Part shown: in pieces, positions 15,001-28,916 of the stretch
Layout of the letters: every line of letters begins with the position of its first letter
Numbering within the stretch: the stretch's first letter is position 1
NCBI GenBank assembly: GCA_034189385.1
Contig: JAXHVD010000033.1
Location: 1-28,916, forward strand
Direction of reading: 5' to 3'
DNA length: 28,916 nucleotides
Source: Thermodesulfobacteriota bacterium
GTDB lineage: Bacteria > Desulfobacterota > Desulfobacteria > Desulfobacterales > C00003060
Program-made: the position numbers

Positions 15001-18000
15001 AAAACAGAAAACTACTTCGTAGTCTGGACCGAATAATTGAAGAAGGACAGAAGCAGGGCGAGTTCGATGATGCTCTTAGACCAACTGTGATGCGCCAAGT
15101 GTTGTTCGGTTCCTTTGAATTCCTATTGTACGGACTTTCCTTGGAAGCATCGGGGAGGGAAAAAGATGTGGGATATAAGGAACAAGACGTGAGGAAAGCA
15201 ATGGATGTCCTGTTCAACAAGTTCCTGAAGAAGTGACTTGTTTTGACTCCAGGTGGTGTGCCGTCTCAGTGGAAACACACCACCCGGAGCGCTAGAACAA
15301 CGTAAACTGAGCCGACACCGGCCCTTGGGATCGGTTAAGCATCTGATCGAGGTCAGCCTGCCTCACCTCAACATGGGTAACTTTCTTCTTTCGCTTACCG
15401 ATATATTCAACAAATTGAACCTTCACTACGCGATCCGCGATCTTCTCAACCTCCGTGCTAGCCTTCCTTATCTCGGGAGAAGGGTCATTGACCTCGCTCT
15501 TCTCCAGGACCTCTGGTCGTGGCTCCAGGCTTGAGATGTCCTTTTGAAGGCGCGCTTCCACCTGGACCTCTCTTTTTCGAAATTTAGCCCAGATATCCTT
15601 GAGACTCCGGCTGTCTTGGGCCTTTTCCAGGAGCATCCTGGCAAGCTCTTTTGCTATCGAATCCGATGTGTTCGAAAGGGCTGCCAGACCCCTGTCAGAG
15701 AGCTCTCCCTCGATGGCAAGGCTGCACATGAGCTTGTCCGCCATAAGCTGCATCAGGCGTGTCTGCATTGTGGCCGAATAGGTCAGGAAATTGACCTTAA
15801 CTGGCTTTTTTTGAGGTATGCGCCACGACCTTCTGGATGCCTGCCTAAGAGTGTAGGTGCTGATGGGGATCTGGTAAAAGACAATGGAAGGAAACTCCAG
15901 AAGGTCCATACCGACCTCAACCTTTCTTGGGTTTGTAATGAGTACCTCCATGCCTTTTCTTGTCCACCGGTCGATGATCTTCGCCCGCCCTTCAGTGTCC
16001 CCTGACCTGAGGACCTTCACCTTGATGCTCTCTTTCTCCATCATGGCAGTCAGCCTTGGGCTGATGTCCGTGGTATTGGAGTTCTGGATGTAGACCAGAA
16101 CCCTGCGGTGTTGTCTAAGCTCCTGTTTTACAATGCTTAGAAGCTCATGCTCTTTTGGCATGACTCCCTGAAGGGGAGGTCCAATCGCCACGGTTTCCTT
16201 TGTATGAGGATGAATGACCTCAAGGCCTTTGTACATCCGCTCGGGGTATGAGAGCAATGCATGGAGATAAGCCCCAAGGAGCGAGTTATCACCAACTGCC
16301 AAGGCCCCCTTCAGCTCCTGCTTCATGACCTCTTCGAACTCAGCGTACAGGCGCGCCATCTCTTGGGGCATGGCAAGTTCGATCACGTCTTCTTCATAGG
16401 GCTGAAGGTGCTCCATACAGTCCGAAAGCCGCATAAAGACTGCGTTTGGCAGTAGCATCTTTCCCAGAAGCAGGGGGCTGATCCCGGGTTTCTCCTTTAC
16501 AATCGTCCTCCGCTTTGCCTTTGTTGTTAGGCCGTCTTCCATCTTCACAGTTGTGATCCTTTCAAGCACCCCGTATTGTTCGATGAATGCCCTAGGGTTG
16601 CCCCAGATATGATTGGCTTGCCGCATCAGCTGTGGATGGGTCCTGAAGAGCAGATGATAGACATCAGAGGCATAGCCGCCTACCAGGGTCCCCGTAAGGC
16701 AAAGAATATGCTTACATGCACTTGCCAGGGCTCCAAAGGCGTATCCCTGCCCGGACTCGTTTTTGAGTTGATGGACCTCGTCAGCCACAAGCAGGTCAAA
16801 GAAGCCCTTCATCTTCAACTTGATGAATCTTGCCGGTATTACCTTACGATAGTTTCTGCGCGTATTATCTGGCTGCCATAGTTGTTCATTGCAAAAAGTA
16901 ACGGCCTTTTCGTACCGGCCTGTGTGAGCATCGTATTTCCATTTGCACATCGTGTTCCTGCAGCGATGCCGCTTTTTAAACCGTCCATGGGTGTTCTTCT
17001 CAAAGATAGGAAGTGGGCAGCCGTCACGGTCAAGCAGCTCCTTGCCACACTTGGGGCAAAAATGCCGGCCTCTTCTTGTCACTACCGCAGGCTTCCACAG
17101 AAAGCCTGTCTTTGCCCTTTCTCGACCGATCACATAGAACTGAAGCCGGTCAGACTTGGGCTGTTTCTTGAGATTTTGAAGCTGACTGATCACGTCCCGG
17201 CCATTGAGATTGTAGACTCCAGCATCCCAAAGGCCCTTCTTGATTTCCTGGATCCACTTCGGCACCAGGTGGGGCGGGCATACAACCAGGACCCTTCGTA
17301 TGTTTTTCAGCTTGGACAGAACATAACTCGTGCCTATGGCCATCAAAGTCTTTCCCGTTCCCATCTCGCAGACTGTGTAGACTGCTCTGTTTCCCGAAAC
17401 TAAGGATTTGTAGCAGGCCTTAATGATCTCAGCCTGCGAAGCAAAAGGCTGCTTCTTCATTTGGCTGAGTAGGCGTGAAAGATCTTCTTCCTTTTCGGTT
17501 GTAGGGTCATGGATGACCGCCAATTCATTCGTGACCTTCTCGGCCATGCTCTCGCCATACTCGTCAAGAAACGCCTTAAGAGAAATAGGGGTTCCCATCG
17601 CTGCCTCCTTTCTAGTCCATGCATCTGATGACCTCCGGCACCTTGTTCCTGATCGCGTCGGATATGAGGTCATGCAGTTTTTTAGGGTTGAAGTAAAAGG
17701 AATAGCCTTTATAGTCTCCAATCAATGTTTTAAGTCTGTTGAGCCAGCCGTCCTCCTGCTCAAATAGTTGCCAGAGCCATTGGGCCCAAGATGGATGCAT
17801 CGGGATATCGGTCTTTTCATCCAAATGCCTGAAGAAGACCTGTTTTTCTCGGCCTTTTTTTGTGAAGACGCAAAAGCTGTCCTGGTCTTGGTCTTCACCT
17901 CGTGGCAGGGCCAGCTTGGGCAGGAGCAACGCGTGAACCAACCCTGAGGGCAGTTTCTTGAGCTTTACCTTGTAGCCCAGGCCTGAGCGGGTAAGATAGT

Positions 18001-27000: not shown

Positions 27001-28916
27001 CTGGGAAGACAGTTACTTTGATGCACGTGCTCTCTACTTTCAAGCGCGTGGCAAACAGCCACGGAGTCAGCTTTCGCTACGCCTATATAGACCTCACCTC
27101 TCCTAAAAGCTACTTTGGTGCCTTAAATGAGGTCGCCATTGCGCTGGACAGTACAAACAAGAAATATCGCAAAGGCATTCCTGTAGAGTATATGCAGGAC
27201 AGGATTGTGGATGCCATAAAGCAGGATAGTGGCTACGTCTGTTTCTTAATAGATGAAGCAGACAACATAAGACCTAACCCCGATTCCTTTCTTACCTTTC
27301 TTGGAAAAACACTTCCTCGTAAGGTGTCCTGCAGGCTCACAATGATCCTTCTTACAAACAAGCTGTACTGGGAAAAGAATCTTGATCCCCGAATCCTGAG
27401 TTTCCTTAAAAAAACAGACATTATCTTCGAGCCATACAATGCCCTGGACCTTCTGGAGATTCTCAAGTTGCGTGTCAAAAAGGCCCTCAACAAGAAGAAA
27501 GTGAAACCTGCGGCACTCAGAAAGGTGGCAGCTTACGCGTCCCGAGAGACAGGGGATGCCAGAAAGGCAGTGGAACTTCTGGCTAAAGCCGTCCGGGTGG
27601 CTGAGGAGACTTCCGGACATTTGACAGAGAAGGAAGTGGATGTTGCGGAAGATAGACTGGAAATCGACAAGACAGAAGAGCTGATTCGAGCACTGGCAAC
27701 CCAACAGCGGGTCGCCCTTGTTGCGTGCTACGCCATTTTGGCAAAAAACGTTTCAAGGGTGTCCACGGGACAGGTCTATCAGACCTACAGGCAACTCTGC
27801 GTGGAGGAGAAGCTCCGGCCCCTGACTCAAAGGCGGTTTAGTGACATCATTAGCTTTCTCGACCTATATGGGCTGATTAGCACGAGGATGGTTTCCAGGG
27901 GACGCTACGGTACTACGAGGGAAATATTGGTGTCGTTGCCTGCAGAGGTAGTCGAGGGGCTCTTAAAGCCAGGAACGGCTTTCCAAAATGGGTGAAGATT
28001 GCTCTTGAATACCCGAAAAATACATCAGTTTCAAAAGGTTGGATCTCATAGCATTACCTAACACCCAGCGAAACCGTACGCCGGGCATGATCTGCAGAGC
28101 AGAGTTAACATCTCACGAAGTCCTGGACTGGCGGGCGCCACCACAACATGTGGGGGCTTTTGCGTAGGAAGGCAGGGCCGAATGACCCTGCCTCTGATCA
28201 TGATCCACAACGAGGTGCACTAAGGGACAATACAGATGGAGTCTGTGCCCTCTATGGGTGTACCGTCCACTAGTTCCCCCGTTAGTTCTGCCATGTCATT
28301 TTGTGGAACCCAGTTCTCGGGATCGTCCTCAAAGTGGCAAACTAAATCCAGAAATTCATCCTCATTTGAATACTCCGTTGAACACAGCGGTCCCTTATTC
28401 CCTCTGACGCGGACTTCAAGGCCAGCAAATGACAAAGTCTCGACGTCAATATCGCTGACGTCAAAGTCGGCGCTGCCAAGGATCGCCACCGGGATAACAC
28501 CGTGCCCGTTGAGATTAAAGCAATTCGGATCACTACCAGGCTTGATGTCTATTTCTACGGTGATGAACTCATTTTGGACAGCGACACACAGACTACCCCA
28601 TTCGTTTCCTCGGCAGTACGGTGTTTCATTTGCTCCCAGAAACAGATATCCTGATACATCAACCGTTGCCGTCAGAGATGATCCGACCAGAAAGACCTGA
28701 TCATCGATTTTCCCGATGAGGGCACCTATCCTTTCACCGGGCAGAGGGTAATAGTCATTAGCTATGTTGGTCTCACCATCGGGGCCTACTCCGCTCCCAC
28801 TTCCCTGCCCAACACCCCATAGGCCGGTAGCGGTAATGGTAAGCTTGTCACCTGAAGAAACAGGTATGAAGGTATTTGTCCATTCAACTTCAGCTGGGAC
28901 CTCTATTGTTCCTGCC

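Follow-up and report, generated by a model that had tools for sequence, protein, structure and literature searches.

The initiation of replication is among the deepest of splits, with DnaA and DnaB in bacteria and Orc1 and MCM in archaea and eukaryotes. A 28,916-nt contig of a Thermodesulfobacteriota genome (GCA_034189385.1, contig JAXHVD010000033.1; the whole of this stretch is referred to here as the window) raises the question of whether an integrated bacterial element can carry an archaeal-type replicon, as a preliminary description had proposed. The source organism is a marine-sediment bacterium, and its draft genome is 90% complete with 4% contamination. The reading we favour, at a probability of roughly 0.6, is that the window holds an Orc1-driven origin, from which the excised element would be replicated using the bacterial replisome.

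An Orc1/Cdc6 gene of a bacterial clade

The initiator gene (26736..27995, + strand) is intact and encodes 419 amino acids, complete in AAA+, lid and winged-helix parts as first described (Pfam AAA, Cdc6_lid and Cdc6_C). The protein scores 256.7 bits against TIGR02928, which confirms a match over the curated cut-off (181.3 bits); its top PDB match is Aeropyrum Orc1 (2v1u, E 2e-47), and it shares 30.6% identity with a Micrarchaeota Cdc6 and 32.3% with an Acidilobus Cdc6. Walker A (residues 85–92) and Walker B (173–176), already thought to be intact, are invariant in an alignment of 33 homologues, as are Gly147-Ile148 of the ISM, Arg366/367 of the HTH, Arg390 of the wing, Arg276, which we take to be sensor-2, and residue 219, presumably the arginine finger. 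Counterparts of the DNA contacts of Sulfolobus Orc1-1 (R341, R365 and G120/L121, as given in excerpts of PMC3089459) are present in the window's protein by alignment. In eight pairs of orc1 genes, identity was 0.31–0.37 at third codon positions versus 0.77–0.88 at second positions. Judged from sequence, the gene is intact and under purifying selection at saturated third positions, and its product is predicted to bind ATP and, specifically, ORBs.

Full-length Orc1 was found in 2/400 other genomes of the phylum, with 2 and 4 copies among the matches listed, in agreement with the distribution first given, plus one weak partial match. It was found in 0/60 close relatives, and no member of its clade was detected among 72,556 plasmid records, 50,697 phage records or in a scan of viral contigs. 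The clade comprises Desulfobacterota and Hydrogenedentota, all named members being bacterial, and is separated by a long branch (quick IQ-TREE on 40 of 114 rows, with a taxon name on 2 of 20 looked-up clusters). Closed bacterial chromosomes carry copies, among them that of the cultured Desulfosarcina variabilis. The literature searched gave no description of such Orc1-ORB elements in bacteria. Because this bacterial clade exists, TIGR02928 is not safe as a marker of archaeal chromosomes, a use made of it in a 2026 preprint.

Integration and gene content of the element

The ends of the element, unmapped in the preliminary description, could now be placed in five relatives, where att repeats of 45–57 nt bound tRNA-integrated elements of 76–130 kb (G062/G063); in the G063 copies an integrase lies beside the tRNA. 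The start of the window overlaps a second host contig, C10, by 54 nt, and C10 carries purA and tRNAs. In the host, the element can be bounded if one assembly gap is bridged: the 3′ end of a secreted-protein gene (28220..28916, −) is cut by the contig end and is probably part of the same gene as the open one with which contig C22 begins, a join between the window's contig (C27) and C22 that we infer. By its sequence features, the family is one of tRNA/tmRNA-integrating bacterial elements.

These placements bear on the reading that the module needs an archaeal or MCM-bearing host to function and is carried here as a passenger, or that archaeal DNA has been mis-binned as this contig. Outside this clade the family is archaeal, an island in one related genome (G061) holds an N-terminal MCM fragment, and the window's genome is a draft with some contamination; however, copies, Desulfosarcina included, sit at bacterial tRNAs in closed chromosomes, the window overlaps a contig with purA and tRNAs, the named members on the clade's long branch are all bacterial, and selection continues at saturated synonymous divergence. 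This reading is very improbable and largely refuted.

Along the window, the C-terminal part of a tyrosine recombinase (42..593, +) and a 390-aa membrane and coiled-coil backbone protein (13171..14343, +) are followed by a block encoding a DUF6094 methylase, a 190-aa protein and an SNF2-type helicase (15292..19259, −), a RadC-like JAB protein (19340..19873, −), an ArdC anti-restriction protein (19938..20765, −) and two small backbone genes with no family match (166 and 97 aa; 20867..22067, −). Next come a backbone HerA/FtsK-like ATPase (DUF87; 22328..24262, −), whose nearest NCBIfam model, CedD, scores far below cut-off, a backbone PD-(D/E)xK (Cas4-like) nuclease (24264..25013, −), a 175-aa coiled-coil-like backbone protein that always precedes the ATPase or the nuclease (25152..25679, −), and a 241-aa protein with no family match and with homologues in several related elements (25718..26443, +). 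Every gene type named at the outset (HerA-like DUF87, PD-(D/E)xK, ArdC, RadC, DUF6094 and SNF2) was recovered with Pfam, but the methylase and SNF2 helicase are accessory, their block being shared with only one of 14 other stretches (G374 C291); the SNF2 helicase was rejected as a replicative helicase on this ground. The host element additionally encodes ParA/ParB and NrdD/NrdG, and related elements carry defence and signalling cargo. Replic_Relax is present in the host, G061, G068 and G374, and no relaxase was found in the five att-bounded G062/G063 elements. No mating-pair (T4SS) genes were found among 193 scanned ORFs, which are part of the elements' ORFs and many of which have no family.

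Inverted boxes upstream of the initiator gene

Two inverted origin-box-like sequences flank AT-rich DNA upstream of orc1, as had been noticed. Scored with a matrix trained without the window, the left box (26515..26537, −) reaches 20.6 bits and ranks fifth in the genome, and the right box (26639..26661, +), with a C-rich outer flank, reaches 22.7 bits and ranks second; their cores lie at 26526–26535 and from 26641. The spacer (26538..26638; 101 nt, 71% AT) is a candidate unwinding element, its core (26560–26612) being 83% AT and containing the window's second most AT-rich 50-mer. An AT-rich palindrome resembling a stretched box lies within it (26581..26594; pattern seen in 13/26 non-duplicate loci), and a perfect 12-bp inverted repeat (26490..26518) adjoins the left box. 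With the same window-free matrix this is the sole such pair in the 4.1-Mb host genome, and two boxes were reached in 0 of 5000 shuffles. Taken alone, the left box departs from the published archaeal core at 3 positions, a level of mismatch occurring at 1.1/kb, so the case rests on conservation within the family. Background rates of 0.03 (≤1 mismatch) and 0.43 (≤2) per kb could not be reproduced, the right-box 12-mer giving 0.01 and 0.16 per kb.

The inverted pair is kept in 20 of 26 loci, 25 of which trained the matrix, and among held-out sequences it was found in the window and in 4/5 further copies. Left out as distant or Walker-A-only were 8/20 genome loci and 16/34 metagenome loci, and L008, L099 and L101 have no 5′ anchor. 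The 20 loci with the pair have the layout of an archaeal origin, namely two inverted boxes, AT-rich DNA (spacers of 90–225 nt, 53–82% AT) and an adjoining initiator gene. Copy b in G063 carries an IS within its spacer. The published ORB core (TTCC...GAA), at ≤2 mismatches, gave 39 sites in the 26 upstream regions against 1.4 expected. The G-string of the published archaeal consensus is absent from the outer flank of the family consensus, which is C/T-rich there (the outward polarity of the G-string being our inference from published descriptions). DnaA boxes were looked for and rejected, perfect ones occurring in 3 of 31 regions and each overlapping the left box.

A third, degenerate box (26728..26750, −; 16.9 bits) covers the Orc1 start codon. 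It is present in 24/26 loci, is retained where the ATG shifts or the encoded residues differ, and persists in L005 and L009, where the inverted pair is lost; it is a probable autorepression operator. Between the right box and the third, the 26-locus alignment reveals a conserved segment (26675..26705, +) with a CAC-N6-GTG palindrome (strict in 8 and relaxed in 11 of 26 loci) and a TTAAATA motif, which appears promoter-like, and in which no sigma-70 match was found.

The start-codon box lends itself to a reading in which a repurposed Orc1 serves as a regulator that binds DNA or as an architectural protein, with the boxes acting as operators for its own gene and for the backbone operons and no initiation taking place there. 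Its survival of pair loss and its presence in nearly all loci fit such a role, as does the lack of MCM, and excerpts of PMC5333045 suggest gene regulation by archaeal Orc1 paralogues. An inverted pair held 90–225 nt apart around AT-rich DNA is, however, left unexplained, the direction of the backbone operons relative to the boxes varies between elements, and the ATPase residues are invariant. We consider repurposing of this kind unlikely.

The helicase question

The host encodes DnaA and DnaB. MCM_OB was absent from the host (G000) and from G062, G063 and G374, the control search finding it in 4/4 archaea, and a search with PF00493 (MCM) gave weak cross-matches only. The MCM gene of G061 encodes an N-terminal fragment without the motor, in an island approximately 104 kb from Orc1, and was rejected as a helicase partner for both reasons. 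As no full MCM was found in these genomes, the family presents an archaeal-type pair without the archaeal helicase, and its route of initiation probably differs from archaeal MCM loading.

The best candidate partners of Orc1 are the products of a three-gene operon on another contig (host contig C22:10232-12060), a Zn-ribbon/winged-helix protein of 264 aa, a protein of 115 aa and a winged-helix protein of 137 aa. Of 401 genomes, the three with full-length Orc1 are exactly those that carry the 137-aa gene. Copy numbers of Orc1 and the 137-aa gene are equal in G061 (1/1), G062 (1/1), G063 (4/4), G068 (4/4) and G374 (2/2), whereas in G066 and G067 the two counts differ. No copy of the 137-aa gene was found in the well-assembled G064 and G065, both with a broken box pair, or in the fragmented G069, where the boxes are intact. 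Fold searches with the 137-aa and 264-aa models returned winged helices of a generic kind (top Z 8.5 and 8.3); kleisin or DnaD identity was discarded because scores tied with unrelated folds, and a ScpA lead in Atlas (score 0.78) yielded no family assignment.

In Bacillota, winged-helix DnaD/DnaB proteins adapt origins to the replisome. As no MCM is present, the operon is proposed as an adaptor to DnaB. It is conceivable, though we put this forward tentatively, that a dedicated winged-helix adaptor of three proteins lets Orc1 at an ORB origin hand over to the DnaB replisome, an arrangement that would be a hybrid of two otherwise non-homologous systems.

Proposed action of the origin

If the window does hold an Orc1-driven origin, Orc1 would use its winged helix and ISM to bind the two inverted boxes and, after excision, would distort or open the AT-rich spacer, the three-gene operon most likely fitting this origin to the DnaB replisome of the host. 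Binding over its own start codon would limit Orc1 expression and keep the origin quiet in the integrated state. The excised circle would replicate transiently and at a low level, which would help it to persist. In the one deep run, possibly the one from which this DNA came, depth on the element side of the contig was 38.2 and on the chromosome side 35.6–41.2, indicating no extra copies; coverage of the stretch was patchy in runs X2–X4. GC skew did not show the expected turn at the origin in any of five elements, GC and AT skew being confounded by gene strand. What stands of the archaeal-type replicon first proposed is a genuine Orc1/Cdc6, a conserved box pair and integrated bacterial elements with ends seen in five relatives; no full MCM in the host and four relatives, the C-rich flank in place of the G-string and a depth equal to that of the chromosome count against the remainder.

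The box pair could instead be a loading site, marked by Orc1, at which the HerA/FtsK-like ATPase and PD-(D/E)xK nuclease process or pump DNA for transfer or for recombination-dependent replication. A HerA-like ATPase is present in the host and all five att-bounded elements, and its nearest model, CedD, is a DNA-translocating ATPase; with no mating-pair genes in the scanned ORFs, transfer would also need some other explanation. Against this, the ATPase falls far short of the cut-offs for CedD and HerA. G064 retains it despite having lost both the box pair and the three-gene operon, and in G067 no such gene was found within 40 kb of Orc1. We regard a loading site as quite unlikely.

Relation to known systems

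Archaeal oriC1-Orc1/Cdc6 pairs (Pyrococcus oriC, Aeropyrum ORC1 2v1u, Sulfolobus Orc1-1 2qby, Haloarcula oriC1) have the same domain order and key residues, a box core shared in TTCC and GAA, and, down to the minimal haloarchaeal oriC1, the same arrangement of an initiator gene adjoining two inverted ORBs around AT-rich DNA. The window family differs in its bacterial host, the lack of MCM, the extra start-codon box, a core centre that is usually CA/TC rather than GT, and a C-rich outer flank in place of the G-string, which excerpts of the haloarchaeal work describe as essential in oriC1; its Orc1 has approximately 31% identity to archaeal Orc1 and a long stem branch. Mobile DNA likewise carries Orc1/Cdc6 in archaea (NitGar-E3, NitVie-E3, NitAQ6f-E1; Natrinema virus 2; haloarchaeal megaplasmids), and the Orc1 of thaumarchaeal integrated elements is presumed, in excerpts of PMC6563490, to recruit the cellular replisome; those hosts supply MCM, whereas the replisome of the window's host is DnaB-based. 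With tRNA-integrating ICEs, IMEs and genomic islands the family shares a tyrosine integrase, att repeats at the 3′ ends of tRNAs, ArdC/RadC and defence or signalling cargo; it differs in that no mating-pair genes were seen in the scanned ORFs, a relaxase was found in some members only, and the initiator is Orc1.

A selected Orc1-ORB pair in bacteria without MCM poses a testable question, whether Orc1 opens DNA or recruits a non-MCM helicase. Desulfosarcina variabilis, whose genome is closed, is available as a host in culture, and the module could give anaerobic sulfate reducers a new replicon.

Integrated bacterial elements with replication genes of non-bacterial type are also represented by the Cch helicase of SCCmec and the AEP primases of mobile elements; these encode helicases or primases, whereas the window family encodes Orc1 with its own ORB-type origin. 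An AEP primase block on host C10, shared with G061 and G067, came into question as the primase that the element lacks. It was set aside as a separate module, since none of the five att-bounded Orc1 elements has it and one G061 island carries it without Orc1.

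Orc1/Cdc6 and its relatives

The open reading frame at 26736–27995 encodes a complete Orc1/Cdc6 (AAA+, lid and winged helix; TIGR02928 above cut-off) that can be aligned over its whole length with the Orc1 proteins of Aeropyrum and Sulfolobus. Across 33 homologues, Walker A/B, the ISM glycine–hydrophobic pair and the arginines of the HTH and the wing do not vary, in agreement with the preliminary description of a complete initiator with intact Walker motifs, and their counterparts in Sulfolobus Orc1-1 are among the residues described as experimentally tested in PMC3089459. The host has one Orc1 copy only, and encodes both DnaA and DnaB.

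A protein search returned 478 matches at E≤1e-20 from 7998 scored candidates; the best 120 of these showed 72–95% identity, the named ones being Thermodesulfobacteriota or NaphS2. Scanning genomes gave at least 20 loci, with 12 clade members at 55–76% among those listed; two of these come from Hydrogenedentota, and others sit on closed chromosomes (Desulfosarcina variabilis, a Desulfatiglandales, a Desulfarculaceae). A metagenome scan added 18 of 34 loci. Trees place the bacterial sequences in a single clade at the end of a long stem, supported at 0.98 by FastTree (114 rows) and at 94% SH-aLRT by a quick IQ-TREE run (40 rows); they point to no particular donor. Distribution of the gene is sporadic: as previously noted, 2/400 other genomes of the phylum carry it at full length, and it was found in 0/60 close relatives. 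Matches in G136 have the same coordinates as those in G070, so G136 is not an independent genome. Searches of plasmid, phage and viral-contig sets met no clade members; the matches listed from the first two sets were haloarchaeal (25–30% identity). Archaeal mobile elements carrying Orc1 are already known (PMC6563490); we found no description of bacterial ones in the literature, although passing mention in subscription papers or supplements may exist.

Origin-like boxes upstream of Orc1

After removal of three upstream regions lacking a 5′ anchor and five near-duplicates, 26 of 34 were used. The archaeal ORB core given in PMC4153887 (Table 2), allowing ≤2 mismatches, matched 39 sites against 1.4 expected, and 2 sites in matched coding stretches. 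A 23-nt matrix, trained with the window left out, detected inverted left and right boxes in 20/26 loci (two of the six misses were truncated contigs), in an origin-like layout with the pair 90–225 nt apart around a spacer of 53–82% AT; a third box lay over the start codon in 24/26. In the window these boxes occupy 26515–26537, 26639–26661 and 26728–26750, with the spacer at 26538–26638. The pair is the sole inverted pair in the host genome, where the window's three boxes take ranks 2, 5 and 13, and two boxes appeared in none of 5000 shuffles. The two inverted boxes initially described around AT-rich DNA stand. Four of five further copies, held out, had all three boxes, and the gene of the fifth contains a stop codon. 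Third codon positions are saturated among these loci, so it is selection rather than recent descent that keeps the boxes, and the third box is retained where the ATG has moved or the residues encoded there differ, so its constraint acts on DNA. That the module is a passenger or an artefact is very improbable.

Whereas archaeal ORBs carry an outward G-string, reported as essential in Haloarcula oriC1, boxes of the bacterial elements have a C/T-rich string at the outward end instead.

All four elements of genome G063 (L025, L027, L032, L036) have an extra box (about 20 bits) within the nuclease gene, and on a metagenome contig a strong box (23.7 bits; L105:3086) is 3 kb away from a distant homologue of Orc1 (29% identity). 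The same 1551-bp IS (L069:17477–19027; C2 about 1653244–1654794) interrupts the integrase of G063 copy a and, in copy b, the AT-rich spacer; the two copies are natural mutants.

Genes inherited with Orc1

The neighbouring genes listed in the preliminary description are present. The most constant companions of Orc1, in 12/14 other stretches, are a co-inherited operon of three genes (host contig C22:10232–12060) encoding a 264-aa Zn-ribbon/winged-helix, a 115-aa and a 137-aa winged-helix protein. Models of the 264-aa and 137-aa proteins show winged helices and match no specific family; Atlas neighbours are bacterial (Thermodesulfobacteriota, Planctomycetota), a lead only. The 137-aa gene is present in exactly the 3/401 genomes with full-length Orc1, and its copy number equals that of Orc1 in five genomes but not in G066 or G067. 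Searches did not find it in the fragmented G069, nor in G064 and G065, the two genomes with broken box pairs.

Next most constant over the 14 stretches are the HerA-like ATPase, nuclease, coiled-coil protein and membrane protein. With the ATPase so regular a neighbour, the boxes might serve the loading of a HerA-like machine, a reading we consider doubtful. The SNF2 helicase and methylase, earlier counted as element genes, are present in the window but in only 1/14 other stretches.

A proposed replication module lacking MCM

Archaeal Orc1 recruits MCM, as described in PMC3607249; no full MCM was found here, so that canonical next step is unavailable. MCM_OB was absent from 4/5 genomes searched. 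In the fifth, G061, it occurred only in a 285-aa N-terminal fragment without the motor, whose gene follows another of no family, 255 aa long (L136:9485–11088 = G061:C1:39485–41088, duplicated near 8092623) on a tandemly duplicated, tmRNA-integrated island in a bacterial chromosome. Pfam scans of 81, 37 and 75 ORFs, part of those on the elements, detected neither DnaB-like, SF3 or MCM helicases nor mating-pair genes.

An archaeal-type initiator–origin module on bacterial integrative elements is real and under selection, without MCM or G-string. We favour, at a probability of roughly 0.6, the module initiating transient replication of the element: Orc1 would bind the boxes, opening of the spacer would follow, Orc1 may repress its own gene, and hand-over would be to DnaB. 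Counting against replication, depth in a single run was not raised at one element end, there was no skew signal, and no free plasmid members were found. A purely regulatory role for Orc1 is unlikely, if a little less so than HerA loading. Of the archaeal-type replicon first proposed for this element family, the initiator–origin module and att-bounded elements hold, but MCM, G-string and excess depth are lacking.

Element boundaries and cargo

The four G063 copies sit at tRNA-Phe, -Arg(acg), -Val and -Arg(tcg), in spans of 76–130 kb bounded by att repeats of 45–55 nt; in D. variabilis, 57-nt repeats at tRNA-Phe flank the copy at a distance of 115 kb from each other. Contig C10 of the host shares a 54-nt overlap with the window start and carries an integrase beside tRNA-Arg(acg), C22:28943–28997 is a 55-nt copy of C10's tRNA-Arg(acg) end in matching orientation, and one open secreted-protein gene leaves the start of C22 while another runs into the window end. 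The host element is therefore probably C10, the window and C22 in that order, about 85 kb plus a gap, by a join that we infer. Within C22:28943–29675 a second integrase lies right of the att copy, and C14:16127–16168 holds a third att copy, a picture that suggests elements arrayed in tandem at tRNA-Arg(acg).

C22 also holds a relaxase-like gene, ParA/ParB, NrdD/NrdG and defence genes. C10:4392–26756 (the L084–L085 block: integrase, HTH, AEP primase, TrwB/HerA-like ATPases, kinase, ThiF) is in part common to islands of G061 and G067; this C10 part looks like a separate module inside the same att pair and is probably an element of its own. In the window lie an IS3-family element (1748–2952), whose end matches contig C21 at 99.6%; a KefC-like cation antiporter and NhaR-like LysR regulator, putatively so named, as cargo (4333–7894); two genes of no family for exported or lipoprotein-like products (11635–13128), with homologues adjoining Orc1 in L093; and short non-coding repeats (668–850, 9088–9205, 27989–28196) that recur as diverged copies on many contigs. 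Genes for large secreted proteins (FG-GAP-like, Kelch) cluster at 28220–28916, on host contig C36 and in L081:1–9000, and are carried as cargo. The AAA gene of the G063 elements contains group II introns, and cargo there is mostly PAS kinases and chemoreceptors, as against defence genes in D. variabilis.
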